NCBI GenBank assembly: GCA_026026165.1
Contig: JAPEUD010000098.1
Coordinates: forward strand, 62,001 to 85,871
Direction: 5' to 3'
Source: Sarea resinae
Lineage: Eukaryota
Length of the DNA stretch: 23,871 nt
A model generated the notes under the pieces. That model was not told the origin of the DNA. It did not search any database and saw only the letters and a list, made by a program, of their open reading frames with translations. Shown piece by piece: positions 2,266-23,871 of this stretch (position 1 is its first letter; each line of letters starts with the position of its first letter). A program made the translations under genes and the position numbers.

Positions 2266-3504
2266 TTACAGCTTACTCGTCGTCTCGCCCGCGACATCCT
2301 CGCCCAAGATATCGATCACCAATTTCCCAAACTGGCTCCCAGCCTTCATGTCTTCGAATAGCGCGTCCACCTTTTCAAGGTCATCCATACCCTTCTCCAA
2401 GCGCACAGTGCGCGAGATGATGGGTCGGAGTTGCTTAGTAGCGACGAAGGAGACCATGGAGGCGAATTCGGCGCGCGAACCCATGGTTGACCCGCGGATC
2501 TCGATGTTTTTAAGAACGGCGCTCATGAGGTAAGGGAGAGAGGGGCCGGTCGTCATGCCATAAGATACTATCACGCCACCAGGCTGACAAAAGGTACTCG
2601 TTAGGAAATGTTGGAGAACAATCAACAAAAGGAAGACCAATTCGAATACCTTGAGGATCTTTGCACCCTTCTCGACAATATTGCCACCTGCACCATCGAT
2701 GATGGCGTCGATGTACTTTCGATCACTCGGCAATTGCTCCACGAGCTTCTTCTCCCATCCTTCCGCCTTGTAGTTCACCCCCCCTTGCGCACCCAATTGC
2801 TTCGCCCGCTGCAACTTCTCCTCGCTCCCGCTCGTGACAAAGGCATTGCAGCCTGCGGCCGCGGCAAACAGCAACGCCATTAGCGCTACACCACCTCCTA
2901 TACCTGTAATCAAGATATTATGCCCAGGCTTTGCATTCCCGCTCTTGGTGAACAGCGCCCTGTACGCCGTCAAGCCCGTCAAGGGAATCGCGGCACTCTC
3001 AACAGAGTCGAGATGCAAAGGCGCCTCCTCGACCTCGCTGGCATCGATACAAACAAGGTCCTGCAGCGTGCCTAGCGGGTGCAATTTGGTGCCTCCCAGA
3101 ATTCGATATCCAGACGGGTCTTCGGGCCCCTCGGCGCTGTCGGCCCAGCCGGAGCCCGGGTTCAGAATCACGCGCTTGTGAAGCCATGACTTAGCAGTCG
3201 GGGACGAGCCCGTGGAGATGACGAGGCCGCAGCCATCGGCGAGGAGCGGCACCGAGAAGGTGGTGCCTGGGTAGAGGTGCTGCCGGATGAAGAGGTCGCG
3301 GTGGTTGACGGAGGCGGCGGTGAGGCGGATTAGAAGCTGGTTGTCTGAAGGAATGGGAGTTGGAACTTCTGTCGTTTGGAGGCTGGGGCCAGGGAAAGGG
3401 TTAGCTCCTTCTCTACGAATGATCTCTGAGAGAGAGGATGCTCACGGGTAGTACACCTTGCCGGGCTTGCCGTCGACTTTTTTGATGGTGATGGCTTTGG
3501 GCAT
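2266..3504 (-). CDS. Medium-chain dehydrogenase/reductase (zinc-type alcohol dehydrogenase-like / quinone oxidoreductase-like), 369 aa, C-terminal PTS1 (SKL)
   Basis: Exons 3504-3446, 3382-2650, 2583-2266. Introns 3445-3383 (GTGAGC..GCTAAC..CAG) and 2649-2584 (GTATTC..CCTAAC..CAG). Protein MPKAITIKKVDGKPGKVYYPLQ...LIRLTAASVNHRDLFIRQHLYPG...LADGCG...AAIPLTGLTAYRAL...ILITGIGGGVA (Rossmann loop)...GSTMGS...QFGKLVI...TTSKL*. Confidence 0.92.
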
Positions 3505-6829: not shown

Positions 6830-9044
6830 GTGGGAAGTAGGGGATCAAGGGATCACACCGAGGCAGGGTGGGTTAAAAGGGAGATGGCAATTACGTATGC
6901 AAGAAGAAGTCGATTGAGAACCTTTCATGTTTCAGCTAAGCAGTCTGAGCAATGTATCTGATATTCCGGTCAATATCGTGTTGTATTTTTTTTTTGGTGG
7001 GGTTCAGCTATCTACTCTGATGCACACTCGTTTGCCTTGCAATATTTACTCTGGACATTTCGGATATATAGCAAAGCGTGAGGGAGGAATAATATCGAAG
7101 TGTGAGGTAGACTGCCGGCATATAGACATGTTACAAGTGATCTTGAAATTCTAGTGCAGAAGCTGGACATGTGTTGATCCTGGGTGCAAGGAAGTGGTAA
7201 TAGATGGACATGCGTAGATTTTCTAGACAGGCGAAGCATTCGCAATCTACCTGCAGCAGATCCAACCAAGTAACAACGACCCGCCGGGGCAGCCGTTTGC
7301 ATCCAACGACAACAAAAAAGAAGATGCAATAAAATCACGAGAAAGAGATAGAGTATGCACGTCATCGATATTGCACGGTTTCCCCTCATCTCGTGCTCGT
7401 GGGGGTCTGTTGAAAGGAGCCGCTCGGAAGACGGCTGCCAAGCTGGGACCGGGTGGCTGCATCTCGCTCCCAAGGGCCTGGTCGAGCGTGGCCGTCATGA
7501 GGCATGTAGGGTAGGTAATTGAACGCGTGCGAGATGCAATCCGCCTGGCACAAGCGGGCCAAATACTTTGCAATCTCGAATCAACTTCTTCTATGCGTAC
7601 CTTATGTTGGGCATCTGAGCCTATAGCTTTGTCCAAAAAGTAATTCTGATAATAAGCAAACCGGGCACTCTCGTCTGAGTGTGCGGCTCGGGTATTATCA
7701 GGGCATCTCTATTGTCCCCAGTGCTAGGACGGAAATGTTAATCTTAAAGCGTCGGTGTGGCTTTATTGAATTAAATGGTGAGTATTTACACATGCACCAT
7801 TGCACCAATAATGGCTCGATGTTCAGTGTCGTTCGCGCCCTTCCTGCCACCTGCTATCGAGACGAAGAGGACTGGAGATGAGGATGAGGATGAGGATGTG
7901 GTGCTTTGTCTAGCTAATACGTTTCTGCGCGACGGAAGCTTGCTAGTAGTCCGAGCTTGTTGTCAGCTTCAAGTCGGCCTTGACCAGAATCATGTGTCGT
8001 TCGGTTGGCCACCGGAAATTACTAGTAGGTAGGTAGGCAGCGTGGTTGAAGTCTCGCGTGAATTGGCTGAGGTACGCAGTATGGTGATGAGTGGCATCCG
8101 CCGAATTGCAAATCAAAGTCATTAATCTTGTCTACGGTAGCATCTACCAAGTAGCGTCCATGACGGCGGAAGCTATGATCGTAGTAGACTTGGCGCTCGG
8201 CCGGACCCTCGCGACGAAACAGAAATCGACAGATTGCCTTGGTAAACAATGGAATCGTTGGAAGGCAATCGATGCAGCGCTGTCGTCCTCGCGCTCTGGA
8301 ATCCACACTCGGCCACTGCCACTCTGCCACTCTGCCACTCTGCACTCGGCAATCTGCACTCTACAGACGTTGAATCTTGAGGCGGCATCATCGGAATGCC
8401 ATGAAGTGGTGACGCGCATGCTGCGCCGTAACAGATAGTTTCCAGCTGTCTTCACCAGGTTCTGATTCGCTCGAGCGTGAAGGAATAGCCCGGACGGTCG
8501 TGATCAGCGAGGCGCTGCTCCAATGGAACAGGCCTTCCTACCGATGCATCTTACTCGATCGAGGACAGATGGAAGCTTTCCAATATTATCGCGCATATGG
8601 TGTCCACTCAGAGAGGGTGCCATTCCTGCTGACATGTCCTCGCTCCTCCCGTCTCCGCCGAGCCCTGCGCATTTCAAAATCTTTCATCTCTCAATAATCA
8701 TGTCCTAGCCCAGCCGAGCGAGAGAGATCGAGGCTGTGCTTCCCGAGCCGCAATTTGCTGCACGAAGGACGGCGTACGGCATTGGCCGTACCAGACAGGG
8801 TCGCTCCAGCCCTTCCATCATTCCAAAGGGCCCGTCCTGATCTGGACGGGCGCGCCTCGGACTTGGACACTCGAACCCTAAACAGCCGGTCGCGGTTCCA
8901 TTGCGTAAGATCGGTCGGTACCTACTTCGTACTGTACTCTGCGAACCGTGAGGTGCGATCGGAGAACTGCGACCTGCGACCTGCCTGCGAACTGCGAACT
9001 GCACGAGAGTTCGGGTCCCAGAGATACCTCGGTCATGATACGAG

Positions 9045-9064
9045 ATACTACTCCGGAGTAGTAT
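9045..9064. repeat. Perfect 20-bp palindrome ATACTACTCCGGAGTAGTAT
   Basis: Sequence equals its own reverse complement. Confidence 0.9.
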
Positions 9065-10898
9065 TGGGGCCCTATTTTTAGCCACTGGAGCCGGATGCCG
9101 CATGCAAGGGCAAGACTTCCAATCCTCTTCCCCTTCCTTCGACCTACTCGACTCGGATAGTGGTACGACCGAAACTCGTACTCTCTCGATGGCCTCTCCA
9201 TCATCGCATTTTGCATTTTGCATTTTGGGGATTTCGTTGATCGCATACATAGTACATGGCACAGTCATCCGTATCGGTCAACGGGAAGAGATGGATCAAT
9301 GTTGGGAGCTGAAGGCCATGGGCCACGCCATGTCGTGTCCTGGCCCGACGCTCTCTGATGATACCGCGATAAGGCGAACCGAGTCTCACGAGTGCGGAGT
9401 GGCGGAGCTGGTCTGCAGACAATCGTTTAAGTCTGCTCTAGCACTACACAACATAGTACTCCGTGAAAGAGGCATTAACACCAACAGGAGTACATAGTAC
9501 TGGACCTTCGGGCCTTGGCCTGGGATCTTGCTGGGCCTGTGGAAAGGAACCTACTCCGGAGTCAAGGACTAGATATTAATGGGTGGCATTAATGGATCTG
9601 ATCGAATGGACGGAGTCGTCCGAGCCGACGCCGTCTGTAACAACCGACGACGAGCTACTCGGTACACCACTCCCTCCATTTTCACCTGATTCTGCTGCAG
9701 AGTCCAGAACACACACCCACACCCACACATCCATCGCTCATGAATTTGGGTCCTTCAGTTGACTCCATGTTACTTTTGACCGCTCATGCGTATACCGATC
9801 CGAGTCGGATCTGGATTTTGACTTCTCTCATACCGCAGGTAGATGGACCGAAATAAACAGAAAAAGAAGTCACACAATCACAGTAGGTCAGTGCAAGCTG
9901 GAGGTCCCATCTGGATGTTTCCCCAATCAATGGACGACTTGGCGAGAGAGAGCCTTTCGGATTTAAGTTCTAAGCGAAGTCTTCGCATTCGGTACTGGGT
10001 CCTTCTTGCAATGCTGGCCTTACCCTGGGACAACCTCGAGCAGCATGAGGTAAGATAACTGGAAACGTTGCTGACAATGATACGGCAATAATAGTAGTGA
10101 TGACCGCTTTGGACTCGTCCTTTGGACTCGTCTCTGATGGCGAAGACTGGCTGGCGGTACTGGATCCGTACTCGTAGGGCCGAGAATGATCGGGGCCAGG
10201 GCTTCCAACTCGCTCCCCTTAGCTTACCATAGAGGCCCTAGGGGCTCGGACCAACAGGGGATGGATCAACGCCGAGGGCATGGGGGCAGAGACCGGCTCG
10301 TCGTCGCTGCTGCATCTTGCTGCATCGTGCTGCATCGTCCTGCGTCTTCAGGCATCTTCTGATGCATCATGGATGCCCTCCCAGCATTTGCAGGCTGCAG
10401 GACGGCTACTTCCCTACTAGGGCAGCAGTAGTCGGTCGAGGACTTCTATCTTTAGGCATCGATTTCTCGCTTCTCGGCATCTGCCCATGCCCATGCCCAG
10501 GTCATTCATCCCTCCATGCCGTCGCTCTCTGGTGTCTGGTGTCTGTGTCTGGTGGTGTTCGCGGCTCGAGTGCGCCCGAGTCTGTCTGCGTACCGTACCC
10601 ATGACTGCAGCGGACGGGCGATCATCCACCCATAGGTAGAGTAACTGCACACGGTGGTATCTACCCTCCTCCTTGGGCGGTGAAGATACTAAATGCGTAC
10701 GACCCAAAGTACGAATACCTGACCTGGCTCCGGCTACGATGATGGCATTCCGAGTGCCGCCACTTGGTGTTTTTCTCAGCCTAGGGGGGTCAGTCTGTCA
10801 GGGTCGATGGATCTGACGCCGCTCGCTCGCTCGCTCATCCTCGCTCATCCCGTGAGCCGCTTCCTTCACCATCCGTGACATCCCATCCCCTCCTCCAG

Positions 10899-10964
10899 TC
10901 CCCTTCCCTCCCCTCCCCTCCCCTCCCCTCCCCCTCCCATCCCATCCCATCCCATCCCATCCCC
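10899..10964. repeat. (CCCCT)n followed by (CCCAT)n pyrimidine-rich pentamer tract; G-quadruplex-capable on the minus strand
   Basis: tccccttccctcccctcccctcccctcccctccccctcccatcccatcccatcccatcccatcccc read directly. Confidence 0.9.
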
Positions 10965-11359
10965 ATTCAAACATGTAAGAGGTATGTAGGTAAGTAGTGT
11001 GAAGTGACACCCTTAATCCGGTATGTGCAAAGTGCCGCCCCAAATGAGGCGGAGCTTAGCCTTTGGGCACACGGACCTGCACCAGTCACATCACCAAGCT
11101 TCATTCACGCAAGCTGAGTGGGCGATCGACTCCAAGCGTACGTTGCTCGTTTTCCATGAAGAGACTGCAATGGCGGCCATCCTTGGATAGTCCATCGATA
11201 GCCTCTACGCCTTTTCGAGAATCCGATAGCCTTGCTCACCTTGCTCACCTTTTCTTACCTTTCTCACCTCTGCTCACCACACCCTCGGAGAGATATAATC
11301 TGTCGCTCTTGTCTCTACTAACTCTCGCTATGCTAATGCCCGTCTTCGATGAATGAATG

Positions 11360-13000
11360 AATCCCATTGATCACGAACACACCACGCTCGCTCGCTGTCT
11401 TACTCACGCTCGCTCACTATAGCTTTCGCGTCTCTCGTTCAGAAGCACCAGACAAGATATCATTATTTTAATTTACGATAGCCACCTTCAACTTCAAGCC
11501 AGCCAGCCAACCAGCCCTTCTTGCGCCTTCGATCGATCTTCTCGCGTCGGGGCCAGCGTCATTACGCATCTCCTCTAGAGACCTTCTTCATTCGGACGTC
11601 TTCTGCTCGGTACCTAGTAGGCATCGCTCGGCGATCCATTTCCATTCGTCGCACCGTTCGTGTGGAAAGCAAGAGGGCATCCGCTTTGGTCGCCTTCTGG
11701 GACGGTCATCTATCATATAATTACTCAGACCTCGATTTGCGACACAAGCAAGCCGTTGCCTGACCCCCAACGACGACGGAACGCATTACCGAAACCACCG
11801 CCTTCCTACCTGAGTACCATTTAGGAATACCCATTATCTCATCGGGCTATTGTTTGCATAGGTAACTTTCAGAAACGCCGGGGAGAAGCCTTCTAAGCCG
11901 AAGTCCATTACGCATTTCTCGCCTCTTGTGCGCCGCTTTGTGGGGTCACATTTGTTGTGGCTCACGAGGCAAGCCGTAGGTTAGGGATTTCGAGGTCAGC
12001 AGAGGTCATCCCTTGCAGATCTACCTGCACCTCACTTCCTAGCTCTGCCGTACACACCATTCCCGTCGAACACACTATCGCGCTTCGAGCCGTGCGAGAT
12101 CCTGCACTCAGCGGCAGATAACCCGATAAACCGATTTGTGAAAGACGCCTTTGTGTTCCAGGTGAGTCTACTCCTACCGTTCATGCAACCATGCGACGCC
12201 AAATTTCCGCCCATTGTGATACTCATTGATCGACCAGGCTGTTCTTCAAACCAATTTGTATTGTCGTTGTTTGGGCTACGTCGGCTTCCCGAGACCTTTT
12301 CAGTCAGCTCACGGCGACCTTGCCGTTAGTGGCAATCCAGGAAAGTCCGAGCTTCTTCCTCTGGCCGCGTGTATTAAGTGCTGGAATCGCGTCGATTCTT
12401 CGTCGTCCCCAGAGTTGGATAGAGTCATCTGCCATCTACTCCTTGGTTGAAGTCGTCGCTGGGGTTCGATAGGCAAGCTTTTTGCCTTCGGAATCGTCTT
12501 CTCGACCTCCATCCTTTACGGGCTGGTGGCTAGATGTAAACCTGGCGGTATTTCCTTTGCCATAATTTTCTTCCAACTACAGCCGACTCTCGTTGTTCGC
12601 CCTTACATTCGTTTCTTCTCTACCACCGATCAGTTGGTCCGCGCACCACGATTTCTAGCTTACATCACTACTTTACTCTCTTTCCTCTTATATCGGCGTT
12701 CAGCCTCAATACCGGCAAGCTGGACTCCCTCTATGATCAACGTCTTCAAGTGAGTTCATTTCCTCCCTCAGGAACGTGTTATTCATGCCAGTGACTCTGT
12801 TTGGCCTGCGAGCATATATAGTCTTCAATGGTACATGGCTGATACGTAATTAATCTTTCATGATGCAGGCTTCGGACTTAGGCATACCTTTCATATTAGA
12901 CGAGCAAAACGATCTGTCGGAATCGATAGATCTACGATACGGAGAATATAGCGAAGACGGCCTTCTGGCCAGGGCTGGCTTCCCGGCTGCGTTGCTTTCA
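11360..13000 (+). promoter_or_regulatory. Putative long spliced 5' leader of medA with uORFs and an in-frame non-AUG extension
   Basis: Only three ATGs in 11360-12732 (12183 and 12191 inside a putative intron 12162-12237; 12534 is ATG-TAA). Intron 12750-12868 (GTGAGT..GCTGAT..CAG). In-frame CTG at 12720. Spliced uORF 12733-12881. Confidence 0.6.
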
Positions 13001-15289
13001 ATGTCAGCCTACGGGAAGTCCCCTCAATCTCACATGTACGGTAAGTGAGGCTCATCTGACCGCTTTAGCACAGCCATATAAAGCTTAAAACGGCGCGGTC
13101 CGGTAAATCGCACGTGAGACTAGTCCTTGCTGACCGGCTCTTCGTACCAGACTTCGATGCCACCCGACCACTCCAAGAACCTACGTATGCCGCCGCACCG
13201 CCTCCGTTCGTCACGCATTTCCCTGGCCCGCAGCCTAGGGCGCCTCATGTGTCGGGCCCCGAGCAGCTGTCGCTCATGACTACGTCGCCCTATGTTCCCC
13301 GTTCTTCTTTTGTAGAAGAGTCCGAACCTTTCATCGACCTTCGAACTAGCCAGCTGCCTGAAGTAATATCTATTCACCCAACGACAGGGCCTCAAGGGAC
13401 CAAAGTTCGAGTTCTCGTCGAGTCCGTTTATGATCTCAGCTCGCAGCCACCGCTCTTTTTCTTGGTGATGTTTGGGTCACGGCGGTGCAACAGTGCTCTG
13501 ACCCGAGTCGACCATCAGAGTCTTTACAGCTACGTAGTAGCCGCAGAGGCGCCACCATTAAATACCACTGGCTGGGTCGAGACGACCGTTCCAATGTATC
13601 TGAAAATGGAGGACGAAAGGGGGGAGGACCTAGGTTCAACTGAGATCGGCAACTATTCGTATACAGACGGACTGTCCCAGCCGATTTATAATTCGACTCT
13701 GGACGCTTCGCGAAAAAGAAAGATCTCACTCGAGTCGGCCGAGTCGATAAAAACACCAGCAAAGCGGCCCTCCAACCAGCAACTACAAGCCAGGCCGAGT
13801 GAAGGATATAATTCGTATACCTTTTCTCAAAGTGGTGCAACACCATACTCTCCAAACCTTCAATCTGTGGCAAAAGGCACCTATACCTCTTCGTCAGGTT
13901 ACAACAGACCTTCGATAGATCCGAGTTATCAGCCGCAGCAATTCTCTCCTCGACAACTTTCATATCAATATCCTCCGGTTTCGTCAATGGTCCCGTCTGT
14001 CCCAGCCCGCTCACCAGCAAGCTCTCCTGCTTGGAGCTCATATTCGGCCCTCAGCCAAGCTGGACGAAGTCCCGGGCGAGTTGCTTCGACTGCGATGGCG
14101 CGTGGACCTGCATCAGCGCCATCCCCTCGGTCTGTTAATCCTCCCCTCATTCGAACGTCGACTCTACAGCATTCTCCTAGTCCTGCCACTACGCCGGCCG
14201 GGATCGCTCAGACCAGTCAAGCCTTCAACCCGTACGCAATGTACCCTCACAAGGCAATTTTGAAAATCGAGGGTGACCTTGATACGATGGCGGAGAACTG
14301 GAGTCGAGATGAATGGGATGCTAAACGGCGCCTGGTGCAATTTTCGCGCCAGCAGAACGGGAGTACCATCCAAACGTCATTCACGCCTATTTCACCCGAG
14401 GACCGTCCACCTAACAGTATCTGCATTAGCTGCATCTGGTGGGAAGATAAACAAGGGTGCTATGTCACCAGTGTTGATACTATCTATCTACTGGAATCTC
14501 TCGTGGCCGTCCGCTTTACGGTTGAGGAAAAGAATAGGATTCGCAGGAACCTCGAAGGCTTCAGGCCGCTCACAGTATCCAAAGCTAGATCCGATAGTGA
14601 GGATTTCTTCAAAGTCATCATGGGTTTTCCCAACCCTAAACCGCGGAACATCGAGAAGGACGTCAAGGTCTTCCCTTGGAAGATTCTTGCTCATGCTTTG
14701 AAGAAGATCATCGGCAAATACGTAAGTATTACTGTTCGACAAATCCATCTCAATACTAACGAGGCTCCAGTCCGCAAGCTACTCATCCACCGCCGGGGCC
14801 TTGCTCACCCCAATAAGCTCTACTGGGTATGCCAGTGGAGGACCATCCGACTCCGGCAACGACCACCGTGTGACAGCCTCCCCATGCTCCACTACGACAT
14901 CCATCTCCCCGGCGGCCTATGCCACCACTATGGCCTCAACGAATCTATCCCCGAAAGCGAGATCGTCAGCAGGGCATCAAGTAACAGTAGTCTCACGCGA
15001 TCTTCGCCCGTCGGTGGCCCCAGTACAAACATCTTCCAATCCCTGGGCACAACACCAACAATATTCACACTTACAACAACCCCAAAGTCTGCCTGAGCTG
15101 AACTTGCAAAATGCGAGTGGTCGGAGTTCGTGGGATTTTGGAGCCTATGTCAATACAAGCCCAACCGCATCCGCGGCTCCTGGGTCATCACAGTCTATCT
15201 TCTATCCACGCAGCTCTATCAGCGTCAAAAGGGAGTCATGTGCGGGCATGGACGATTATCCAGGAAGCCACCGGACTTCTCGTTCCTGA
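13001..15289 (+). CDS. medA: Medusa developmental transcriptional regulator (MedA / ACON-3 / Ren1 / Acr1 family), 709 aa from AUG 13001; possibly 763 aa from CUG 12720
   Basis: Exons 13001-13040, 13151-14721, 14771-15289 (introns GTAAGT..GCTGAC..CAG and GTAAGT..ACTAAC..CAG). Family-typical C-terminal block NPPLIRTSTL...KAILKIEGDLDTMAENWS..EW..KRRLVQF...CISCIWW...VTSVDTIYLLESLVAVRFTVEEKNRIRRNLEGFRPLTVSK...FFKVIMGFPNPKPRNIEKDVKVFPW..L.HALKKIIGKYSASYSSTAG. IPT/TIG-like segment PEVISIHPTTGPQGTKVRV. Confidence 0.93.
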
Positions 15290-16528
15290 GCGTTATAGCG
15301 GCGACCAAAAAGCCGTCGATCTTCGGGGTCATGCGGCCTAGCCGAGCTAGTCTTCGTCTGGGCAAACCTGACCCCCACCATACTAGCTTCTTCCACCCCA
15401 CCACAACCACCGATGCATTTAAATACATCTCTCGACAATACCCTTTAACATTGATATTCTCTGATTTCCTCATTAGTGTAGCATTTATCCGGGGTCTTTC
15501 TCGGCGCATGCATTTCTTCTGTAACTCGGAATCTCTTACACTGGGTCTTAATACCATAGCATATGAGGCGTTTACTGGATACACCTATTTAGGGCGCAAG
15601 CTAGGAGACCTGGAGATATGATTCACTGCATTTCCATTTGTTTGAGCGAAGCATTAATCGGCGTCGTATACCTCTTCCTATCAGTCTGTTCATCTGTACT
15701 TGCATATGCTCTACGAGGCGGCGTGGGTTCTTCATTGATCTACTTTTCTTTACTGTATTTGCATGGCCCCGGGGGAAGGGGGCCGGATTTGCGAGATCGG
15801 GATAATGTGAGGGAAACGGTTCCATTCGGGCACTTGCCCTTTGGGATGTATGCAAAGCACTGCTATATTTTCTATCGGTGATGCTTGCCAGCGCATCATC
15901 TATTAATCTTACGAGCTATACGATACGCGTGCCTTCAGTTCTCTGCGAGCGTCGAAATAGCATATATTAGTAGGTGCTCCGTACAATCCATAGTGATACA
16001 ATTCGATTGCCGCGTTCCATTTGCTTAGTTCCATTTGTTTACAGTGACGTCAATGGCTCGTTAAGCCAGAGCGCCCCGTGCAGGTGCCAGTGGCCGTCAC
16101 AGGCCGTGGGCGGCAGTAACCGCAAAGGGACAGTGATACGTTCCTTCGGTCTGCGAATCATGGCAGTTCCGCTCGGTAGCGCATGTGAAGCCTGGCGATC
16201 CCCGTACTTCGTACATACGGAGTAGTCGTAGTACTTCAGTACTCCAGGGCTCCTAGGCCGTTCCCAGTTTCTCGTCTCCTGCGGCGCGAAGGACACTTCC
16301 CTACTTCGTCACACGACTGCTTTCTCGCGGGACCGCCAACCTCACTCTCATCCTACACTACCCGATCGCAAATCTCGACCACCAACTCGTTCACTTCATC
16401 ACACCCTCTCGCCACATCCCCAAGTCTAACCTGTGAGTCTGATAAGATCAATCTCCCATTCTCGCTTTGACTGTCCGTCTCACAGTAACCAGCACAAATC
16501 TCGAAACCGCTTTCGTCATCGCTACACC

Positions 16529-18621: not shown

Positions 18622-20285
18622 ATGGCCAAATCACGGAGAAATGTCAAATTCCAACACCGGGGAAACAACACGGTGGACGGGAGGAGACAGAGCTTCTCCG
18701 AGGTCAGCGAGGCCGCATCGGAGCCGGGCAGTCCCTCCAGGCATGGATCACACACAAAGGCCGAGGTATGCAGATAGCTTCCCCCTCCTCCAAGTCTGAA
18801 TGCATGCTGAGCTGTCTTGCTGCGTGAACATGACATCGCCCGAGCCGAAAGAGCCGTTGCTGACCGTGCCATGGACATTCTAGCACGATGCCCCTCCAGT
18901 CTCAGACTATGAGAAGAAGAAGGCAACCTTCATCACTCGCACGATATGGACCTTCATCATGATTGCTATCTTCTTCGGTGCTCTGTTTGCAGGGCACATC
19001 TACATGGTGGCTATCGTCACTGCCGTCCAGATCATCTCCTTCAAAGAAGTCATCGCCATCGCCAATGTTCCGAGTCGTGCAAGAAGACTCCGCTTTACCA
19101 AGAGCCTCAATTGGTACTTTTTGGCCACGACAATGTATTTCCTATACGGCGAGAGCGTCATCTACTACTTCAAGCATATTGTCCTGGTTGACAAGGTGCT
19201 CTTACCGTTCGCTACTCACCATCGATTCATCAGCTTCACACTCTACGATATTGGTGCGTCCATCGTTCCGCCCTCAGTCCATGTAGCCCTCGCTAACTAC
19301 ATTTTAATATTTGTGTAGGCTTCGTATTCTTCGTGGCCTCCTTGCAAAAAGGTCACTATCGATTCCAGTTTACGCAATTCGCCTGGACGCATATGGCGCT
19401 CTACCTTATCGTGGTCCAAGCACACTTCATCATGAACAACATCTTCGAAGGGATGATCTGGTTCTTCCTGCCAGCTGCTCTCGTCATCACCAATGATATC
19501 TTTGCCTACGTCTGCGGTATCACTTTCGGCCGCACGCCACTTATCAAGCTCTCTCCTAAGAAGACCGTTGAAGGCTTCATCGGAGCATGGGTCTTTACCG
19601 TCATTTTTGCCGTCGGCCTGACCCACTTCCTCAGCCAGTACAAATACTTCATCTGCCCTGTGAACGTAAGCCAGTCCTCACATCCCTTTCACGTCCTTTG
19701 CGGAAGCACTCTTTACTTACCTTATTCCATAGGACCTGGGAGCCAACATCATTTCCGGCTTACAATGTACTCCCAATCCCGTCTTCATTCCTCATACATA
19801 CCACCTCCCCGCCTTCACCCAGTACATTCCGTGGGCCCACCTCCCCCCAACTCTCAGCATCGCCCCGATCCAATTCCACATGCTCATTTTCGCGTCCTTT
19901 GCCTCTCTCATCGCCCCCTTTGGCGGATTCTTCGCTTCGGGCCTCAAGCGTACCTTCAAAGTCAAGGACTTCGGCGAGTCCATTCCAGGGCATGGTGGCA
20001 TCACCGATCGAATGGATTGCCAATTCATCATGGGATTTTTCGCCTACATGTACTATCATAGCTTCATTGCGGTCTACAAGACGAGTGTGGGTGGGGTGAT
20101 CGAAGGTGCGATTACCGGGTTGAGTCCGGAAGAGCAGTTGGAGGTTGTGAAGGGGCTGAGCAGATACCTGTACAACCAGGGTATCGTTTCTGAGAGGGTT
20201 AGTTTGTTCTTACATATATGAGTATTACCTTCAAGCTTACCATTTCTAGGTTCTCGACTGCATCACGACGGAGATCAAGAGATGA
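18622..20285 (+). CDS. CDS1: Phosphatidate cytidylyltransferase (CDP-diacylglycerol synthase), 453 aa
   Basis: Exons 18622-18765, 18884-19253, 19319-19665, 19733-20197, 20250-20285 (1362 nt). Motifs NDIFAYVCGITFGRTPLIKLSPKKTVEGFIGA and FASGLKRTFKVKDFGESIPGHGGITDRMDCQ; multiple hydrophobic segments. Confidence 0.96.
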
Positions 20286-23843: not shown

Positions 23844-23871
23844 GGGGGGGGGGGGGGGGGGGGGGGGGGGG
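23844..23871. other. Terminal poly-G run; probable contig end or sequencing artefact
   Basis: The window ends in an uninterrupted G homopolymer, shortly after a poly-T run. Confidence 0.6.

Follow-up and report, generated by a model that had tools for sequence, protein, structure and literature searches.

Analysis of a 23,871-nucleotide (nt) stretch of Sarea resinae DNA (contig JAPEUD010000098.1, positions 62,001 to 85,871 of the forward strand; hereafter the window, numbered from its first letter) indicates that positions 11360-12719 of the + strand likely form the 5' leader of a distal transcript of the regulatory gene medA, a leader that has been purged of AUG triplets and that ends at a deeply conserved CUG, the probable start codon. 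The identity of the gene is well founded: the downstream open reading frame (ORF) carries DUF7082 (PF23305, E=2.7e-75, 251.8 bits vs a cut-off of 27), its product matches at 100% identity a hypothetical protein deposited for a Sarea resinae metagenome-assembled genome, and relatives include a Diplodia protein named 'transcriptional regulator medusa'. In filamentous fungi MedA (also Acon-3, Acr1 or Ren1) has been widely studied as a regulator of conidiation, adhesion and virulence, and its mode of action and regulation are poorly understood. An AUG-purged leader of more than 1 kilobase (kb), with a conserved upstream AUG (uAUG) and a CUG kept at about 45-55% protein identity, would point to translational control of medA.

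The ATG-poor stretch itself is real. By direct count, the + strand of 11360-12732 holds ATG only at 12183, 12191 and 12534, in agreement with the three counted in a first-pass annotation of this DNA; five ATGs crowd the roughly 30 nt immediately 5' of the interval (11330, 11336, 11349, 11353 and 11357), and the first one 3' of it is at 12733. In 20,000 dinucleotide-preserving shuffles of 11360-12732 the mean was 11.99 ATG (standard deviation 2.84), placing the observed 3 at P(<=3)=0.0004. The naive expectation of about 20 in the first-pass annotation was thus too high, the composition-corrected figure being 12.0, and the comparison it had called for, ATG and CAT against a dinucleotide-shuffled null, yields a significant ATG deficit (P=4e-4) with CAT unenriched (31 on the + strand against 26.3, P=0.11). 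Among all 64 trinucleotides ATG is the most depleted in the interval, with an observed-to-expected ratio of 0.25.

That the deficit merely mirrors chance or the composition of a C/T-rich intergenic region draws on the pyrimidine richness of the interval (C 417, T 387, G 291 and A 278), which cuts the expected ATG number from about 21 to 12. The deficit is however significant after dinucleotide correction, and it also withstands a window-wide scan, in which the post-hoc choice of the interval was corrected for by 1000 dinucleotide shuffles of the whole 23.9-kb window. None of the 1000 held any 1373-nt segment with three or fewer ATG on either strand, and a single one held an ATG-free gap of at least 826 nt, the size of the largest such gap on either strand of the window (11357 to 12183; the runners-up measure 442 nt on the + strand and 515 nt on the - strand). 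Once the intron 12162-12237 is removed, the spliced leader (11360-12719, 1284 nt) retains 1 ATG vs 10.2 expected, and one or fewer was reached in 0 of 5000 shuffles.

We then turned to orthologous loci, sampled from metagenome contigs as the best 80 of 292 stretches encoding a relative. Twelve other distinct medA loci with at least 4 kb of upstream DNA were analysed in 250-nt bins, counted from 0 on the CTG side. From 0 to -1500 the observed-to-expected ratios for ATG are 0.50, 0.32, 0.73, 0.57, 0.37 and 0.57, pooling to 107 ATG vs 204.4 expected (ratio 0.52, Poisson P=5e-14), and from -1500 to -4000 the count is 549 vs 535 (ratio 1.03, bins 0.94-1.15). CAT stays at 0.83-1.29 in all bins. ATG falls below expectation in -1400..0 in 12 of 12 loci, so that the recount in orthologues suggested by the first-pass annotation reproduces the deficit throughout, with CAT flat. 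A strand-specific ATG deficit relative to a composition-matched null is accordingly found in the window and in the orthologues alike. Chance or composition would have to account for undepleted CAT and for 12 independent loci with a common edge near -1500; we consider this explanation effectively refuted by the whole-window scan and the 12-locus comparison, and its remaining probability is negligible. At the level of sequence, blastn of the window leader against the other leaders returned one significant block only, most of the leader being unalignable at such divergence.

The 3' end of the leader is marked by an element in the upstream exon with the consensus A-C-C-G-T-C-A-A-N CTG G-C-N. After removal of near-duplicates, 29 distinct loci were available for the statistics of this element, where the putative start codon is CTG in 28 and GTG in one. 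All 29 have A at -3 and G at +4, a figure that is partly due to construction since A at -3 together with [CGA]TGG, or else Leu/Val-Ala, was required by the search patterns. C follows at +5 in 28 of the 29, and +6, the last position of codon 2, is unconstrained (T14, A7, C7, G1). The window reads A-A-G CUG G. In every intron-bearing locus listed, the window included, CTG lies exactly 30 nt before a phase-0 GT donor, and where no intron is present the CTG runs directly and in frame into the extension described below. In the window, CTG 12720 is followed by a donor (GT, 12750) and an acceptor (CAG, 12866-12868), with the frame resuming at 12869. Four further distinct loci were noted beside the 29: L021 and L072 carry the CTG element, L046 is ambiguous and the L058 clade is without it. 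Taken with the conserved frame downstream, the comparison suggests that CUG 12720 probably starts a long MedA isoform, and that AUG 13001, the first in-frame AUG, probably yields a shorter one. The start of medA, previously placed at 13001, most likely has to be moved to the conserved CUG, and the leader interval once drawn to 12732 stands for the most part, its last 13 nt being probably coding.

The predicted layout on the + strand, from the leader to the end of the gene, is as follows.

11360-12161, + strand: leader exon 1, ATG-free, 802 nt, from the ATG counts and the comparative deficit.
12162-12237, + strand: candidate 5' untranslated region (UTR) intron, GTGAGT, branch-like TACTCATTGAT and CAG, holding ATGs 12183 and 12191, from comparison with L008 and L002.
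12238-12719, + strand: leader exon 2, in which 12252-12295 and 12600-12614 are conserved, from comparison.
12534-12539, + strand: start-stop upstream open reading frame (uORF) ATG-TAA, 186 nt upstream of the CUG, conserved in position.
12708-12722, + strand: initiation context and CTG (12720-12722), probable start of long MedA, from the 29-locus comparison.
12720-12749, + strand: initial coding exon segment, running from CTG through 10 codons to the phase-0 donor and containing the out-of-frame ATG 12733, from spliced models and the CTG-GT spacing.
12750-12868, + strand: predicted intron, GTGAGT, CTGAT and CAG, from comparison and the spliced model.
12869-13040, + strand: exon with the N-terminal extension and the first in-frame AUG 13001, from protein alignments.
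13041-13150, + strand: predicted intron, GTAAGT, CTGAC and CAG; tblastn high-scoring segment pairs resume at 13150.
13151-15283, + strand: rest of the medA (DUF7082) coding sequence with a 49-nt intron at 14722-14770, from PF23305 and tblastn, the 3' end being approximate.

The region between the CTG and AUG 13001 carries the hallmarks of protein-coding sequence. The in-frame translation 5' of ATG 13001 can be aligned to the N-terminal ends of proteins from Xylona, Acarospora and Diplodia, and the extensions have the motifs P-[LIF]-I-L-D-E, G-L-L-A and L-S-M-S in common, the window form being P-F-I-L-D-E, G-L-L-A and L-S-M-S in this order. By tblastn (E<=1, some rows weak) the extension was found in 58 of the 80 loci, and in the window. 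For 24 distinct loci (of 29) in which it could be delimited, the entropies of the three codon positions over the 39 aligned codons upstream of the first Met are 0.93, 0.89 and 1.46, with the third above the others (P about 1e-5). Stops in frames 0, +1 and +2 number 0, 31 and 32, the zero in frame 0 being a condition of row selection. From this third-position excess, together with the stops in the other frames, it follows as a reading of the alignments that the extension upstream of the first AUG is translated. A protein query with the 57-residue extension among longer proteins found nothing, a weak result limited by the word index.

These observations bear directly on the simplest alternative, namely that AUG 13001 is the sole start and that the conserved upstream sequence is untranslated leader or holds short uORFs only. 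Speaking for it, the in-frame AUGs begin with 13001, the conserved Met of L-S-M-S, 23 of 121 deposited proteins are tagged as starting there (a loose tag, since at least P0007, P0015, P0070 and P0117 do not), and the spliced mRNA model of the window has the out-of-frame AUG 12733 ahead of 13001. Such a leader would however have to mimic the coding signature of the 39 upstream codons, and to preserve P-[LI]-I-L-D-E and G-L-L-A at the amino-acid level across loci with MedA proteins that are only 43-57% identical. We regard a sole start at 13001 as improbable.

The distribution of ATG downstream of the CUG also fits the proposed initiation there. Of 27 spliced models, 21 are without ATG in any frame from the CUG to the first in-frame Met, a span of 132-267 nt, with the caveat that the automatic acceptor is wrong for L073 and probably for L059, L050 and L067, that L007 is mis-modelled and that L051 is without a model. 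Codon 7 of the first exon is an in-frame ATG in three models (L075, L045 and L080). A single out-of-frame ATG occurs in three more, at +13 in the window, at +20 in L034 and at +64 in L006. The clade of L075, L045 and L080 retains the CTG in addition to this codon-7 ATG of the 10-codon exon (M-R-[HQ]-Q), and deposited Botryosphaeriaceae models begin M-I-H-T-S at apparently the same place; the pattern looks like an evolutionary switch between a CUG-only and an AUG start. In the window the ATG at 12733 has a weak context and opens a 9-codon out-of-frame ORF in the spliced mRNA model; as a true start it was rejected, since it is out of frame once spliced, and a local resemblance to L061 proved misleading.

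Another line of evidence comes from contigs resembling complementary DNA (cDNA). In seven contigs of 2.6-4.6 kb (L005, L016, L018, L019, L035, L021 and L072) an uninterrupted ORF of 698-748 codons runs from the CTG, as opposed to the genomic loci, where the ORF from the CTG is broken after 14-34 codons. Comparison of L035 with the genomic loci L077 and L073 is instructive: identity is 90-92% up to CTG+30, and the alignment resumes after 138 nt (L077) or 157 nt (L073), exactly the predicted coding intron. On structural grounds we infer that the intron-free contigs are assembled mRNAs. The leaders of L005, L016, L018, L039 (only partly intron-free, its ORF being interrupted after 103 codons), L021 and L072 measure 889-1391 nt, and pooled they hold 16 ATG vs 65.5 expected (P=3e-13), with CAT at 121 vs 113.4. 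The proposal of a long scanned leader under selection against uAUGs thus finds support in the strand-specific deficit of 12 of 12 loci, in the cDNA-like leaders and in the conserved leader intron.

The same contigs speak against the idea that an unrecognised upstream exon, spliced in just 5' of the CTG motif, supplies an AUG from which the extension is translated. In most loci a stop and an acceptor precede the extension exon, without in-frame ATG, and an AG between the in-frame stop and the CTG, as such splicing would use, is found in L007, L020, L034, L045, L075 and L080. L006, L016 and L017, on the other hand, have no AG between stop and CTG, and no near-cognate codon either; an AUG from an upstream exon is therefore impossible there. 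Moreover, in each of the six cDNA-like leaders the frame of the CTG is closed by a stop 4-33 codons upstream, no ATG intervening, and L005, L016, L018, L021 and L072 are continuous from the long leader through this stop into the CTG. Across the 29 loci no in-frame ATG occurs between the preceding in-frame stop and the CTG, and in 10 loci the stop is only 4-11 codons away. The conservation 5' of the CTG falls on the would-be third codon positions -7 and -4, which fits an initiation context and not coding sequence. An upstream AUG exon is consequently very hard to uphold.

The long leader would begin at a transcription start site (TSS) far upstream, and here the following elements are placed by motif and homology.

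11293-11299, + strand: ATATAAT, TATA-like and a candidate core promoter for distal medA transcription, from reading of the sequence.
11350-11365, + strand: putative TSS zone, where the ATG desert has its distal limit (11357 being the last ATG before it), by homology.
11383-11419, + strand: block at the leader 5' end in which YTCGCT recurs (11387, 11391 and 11409), by motif and by eye.

The TSS is placed at about 11350-11365 in the window by homology only. Among the cDNA-like contigs, L005 and L018 start 24 and 37 nt upstream of a conserved YTCGCT block, to which window 11383-11419 was matched by eye and motif, without a scored alignment. Genomic L069 has the block at -1361..-1304, with the last ATG before the desert at -1398, 37 nt upstream of it, and L072 maps onto L020 in like manner. 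Across 13 loci, YTCGCT occurs at -1500..-1000 28 times in sense and 0 times in antisense orientation, vs a background of about 2-4 per bin at -4000..-2000 and 11 sense copies at -2000..-1500. The ATATAAT at 11293-11299 would lie about 55-70 nt 5' of the TSS. Leader 5' ends with clustered YTCGCT are seen in L005, L016, L018, L039 and L069; the motif (often CACTCGCT) clusters again near -50 in medA leaders, and in the window it forms another cluster some 540 nt farther 5', at 10822-10845, possibly the mark of a second start site. A C/T-rich, microsatellite-like tract (10878-10965, with CCCCT and CCCAT repeats) is found some 400 nt 5' of the putative TSS; polypyrimidine tracts have been reported upstream of regulator genes with large intergenic regions in Aspergilli, according to the available part of PMC3730340.

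The few ATGs that the leader retains are either intronic or correspond to a conserved uAUG. The first two, 12183 and 12191, lie in the intron proposed in the first-pass annotation from GTGAGT at 12162 to CAG at 12237, whose position is conserved: an intron is present at the same place in two Acarospora-like loci, L008 and L002, each with two ATGs inside. Donor, branch-like motif (T-A-C-T-[CT]-A-T-[CT]-G-A-T), acceptor and downstream exon line up by eye with L008 and L002, and blastn aligns the window exon at 12252-12295 with L008 at 84% identity over 45 nt (E=1.5e-6). The second intron candidate of the first-pass annotation, GTAACT at 11862 to TAG at 11979, fared less well, with no comparative or ATG-based support and a donor without G at +5.

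The third ATG opens the start-stop uORF ATG-TAA at 12534, which is present as described. Among 28 loci with enough upstream DNA, 16 have an ATG at -171..-195 from the CTG, in a shared weak context, (CTGG/CTGC)ATGT. It is the position of the uAUG that is kept, and conservation of the start-stop state itself was not found: this state is confined to the window, L002 and L008, and elsewhere the uORF has 3-22 codons encoding unrelated peptides. The notion that the conserved uAUG is a split start codon at a donor was discarded, the following GT lying in poor donor contexts. As a separate observation, L002 (-733) and L008 (-646 from the CTG) share a second, more upstream start-stop ATG-TGA, to which the window has no counterpart.

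The most serious rival holds that the principal medA mRNA starts proximally, in or near the intron 12750-12868, with translation from the ATG-ATG at 12860, the distal zone being a minor or regulatory transcript in a manner resembling brlA alpha/beta. The intron carries 5 ATG in 119 nt (12785, 12828, 12835, 12860 and 12863) and, at 12813-12821, a TATA-like CATATATAG, about 40 nt before the ATG-ATG at 12860-12865 that abuts the acceptor CAG; both 12860 and 12863 share the frame of the conserved exon. L045, the L058 clade and deposited Xylona and Coniosporium models likewise have an in-frame ATG immediately 5' of the acceptor, and two initiation sites have been reported for A. nidulans medA, as given in the accessible portion of the review PMC3563288, a statement that also speaks for the distal transcript. 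Counting against a proximal start, such an in-frame ATG occurs in only 2-3 of about 20 contexts, which is near chance expectation, the cDNA-like contigs all have the long leader and the CUG exon spliced in, and the conserved CTG, its context and the exact 30-nt spacing are left unexplained. We judge a principal proximal transcript to be distinctly unlikely. It is nevertheless compatible with a distal transcript, the two not being mutually exclusive, and a product of the ATG-ATG at 12860, obtained through a proximal promoter or intron retention, is possible and would be MedA without its first 10 codons.

Several observations weigh against a distal, AUG-purged leader ending at CUG 12720, in addition to the search patterns that bias the 29-locus context. 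The deficit is weak in L006 (18 of 21.1) and L024 (13 of 18.1), and the Dothideomycete-like leader L072 retains 5 uAUGs in its proximal half. The L058 clade is without the CTG motif and has an in-frame ATG just before the conserved exon instead. The window itself deviates at codon 2, with GAC in place of the consensus GCN, and has the out-of-frame ATG 12733 at +13, which most orthologues are without; the in-frame ATG-ATG at 12860, at the intron end, would give nearly the same protein from an intron-retaining or proximal transcript. Finally, structure is the sole basis for treating the intron-free contigs as transcripts, as comparison is for the proposed transcription, TSS and splicing of the S. 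resinae medA locus.

With these points weighed, the AUG-purged leader ending at CUG 12720 suggests the following scheme, in which transcription through this region, the TSS, CUG initiation, two isoforms and their modulation by the uAUG are predictions from the sequence. The leader would measure about 1.36 kb on the genomic level, and about 1.28 kb after removal of the intron 12162-12237. 43S complexes would scan the whole of it to the weak, optimally placed CUG at 12720, and the leader would be kept nearly AUG-free because they must scan its full length. The single tolerated uAUG, conserved in position (start-stop 12534, weak context), probably meters or conditions the ribosome flux to the CUG. 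After ten codons the phase-0 intron 12750-12868 would be removed, with the frame continuing into an AUG-less extension of about 54 codons. Ribosomes passing the CUG would reach AUG 13001, the L-S-M-S Met, and give rise to the shorter isoform; the AUG-free span between CUG and Met is the layout expected if leaky ribosomes are meant to reach this AUG.

Extrapolating further, Pezizomycotina in general may make two MedA isoforms from one AUG-free leader, with an ancient CUG and an AUG about 55 codons on, and with the uAUG about 180 nt upstream setting their ratio according to initiation-factor status, a generalisation that we put forward tentatively and would not yet favour. Should the two-isoform reading be true, nutrient or stress state would be coupled to the timing of conidiophore development, and nearly all deposited MedA models would have the wrong N-terminus. 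Deposited MedA protein models indeed differ greatly in where they place the N-terminus, which is what a non-AUG start would lead one to expect, and a CUG start would explain these inconsistent choices of the gene callers. The predicted conserved N-terminal domain of MedA (from P-L-I-L-D-E to G-L-L-A) is unstudied. As a point of method, a TSS as well as a non-AUG start can be located from an ATG desert seen in the bare sequence.

For the rest of the locus, the deposited model P0002 (13034-15096) begins at the late Met 13034, leaving out the conserved N-terminal region, and it runs through the 49-nt intron (GTAAGT at 14722 to CAG at 14770), bringing the C-terminus out of frame; tblastn with Pycnora and Xylona proteins picks up again at 14771 and continues to about 15283. 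An Rfam search of 9000-15500 at E<=1 gave no match. From 7700 to 11290, about 3.6 kb 5' of the putative TSS, there is no ORF with a Pfam match, a large intergenic region as in fungal developmental regulators. Neighbouring ORFs match the zinc-binding alcohol dehydrogenase domains ADH_zinc_N and ADH_N (2266-3441, - strand) and the cytidylyltransferase family CTP_transf_1 (19297-20061, + strand). The window end (23844-23871) is a run of 28 G after a T-run, which looks like a sequencing or assembly artefact at the contig end.

Minimal AUG-stop uORFs are known from other systems, for example plant NIP5;1. The uORF at 12534 resembles them in that an AUG is directly followed by a stop within a long leader, and differs from the NIP5;1 type in that only the position of the AUG is conserved, with the start-stop form in 3 lineages; stalling or ligand dependence is not known.

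In the literature searched, which left the primary medA papers outside, nothing relevant was found on medA or acon-3 with non-AUG, CUG or near-cognate initiation; the main text of PMC5487733 mentions neither acon-3 nor medA, and in PMC4631450 'UTR' refers to cloning flanks only. Within that scope, the combination of a long AUG-purged leader with a conserved non-AUG start appears undescribed for medA, a novelty that is provisional.

Related cases do exist among fungal regulators. A CUG start has been proposed for Podospora anserina IDI-4, and Neurospora crassa cpc-1, the GCN4 homologue, has conserved N-terminal extensions with near-cognate initiation (Ivanov et al. 2017, PMC5487733, from the portion at hand). 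As with cpc-1 in that source, the medA case would concern the mRNA of a fungal transcription regulator with a leader of more than 700 nt, uORFs, and conserved non-AUG extended isoforms next to an AUG form. The proteins are however unrelated, two AUG uORFs dominate the control of cpc-1, and the predicted medA leader has about double the length and is nearly devoid of AUG, a single uAUG being conserved; the medA CUG furthermore lies 10 codons before an intron, unlike in cpc-1, and the medA case is known from sequence alone.

Further related cases are brlA and stuA of A. nidulans, which have large upstream regions, two TSS, 5' UTR introns, small uORFs through which translation is controlled, and isoforms that differ at the N-terminus (PMC3563288, 10.1101/627414 and PMC3730340, each as partially available). 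Like these, medA is a developmental regulator of the same conidiation network with a predicted 5' UTR intron and a uORF. Both brlA and stuA have AUG starts, and the available portions of these three sources describe neither an AUG-depleted leader of more than 1 kb nor a CUG start for them.

The arrangement around the proposed start codons finds a likeness in C/EBP-beta (PMC5487733) and c-Myc (10.64898/2026.06.01.729300), where, going by the accessible parts of these sources, a near-cognate codon in good context is followed by an AUG-free stretch and an in-frame AUG, and leaky scanning yields long and short isoforms. The proteins and kingdoms differ. The window, like C/EBP-beta, has a short out-of-frame AUG ORF between the CUG and the AUG, an element that is unconserved among medA orthologues (3 of 27 models).

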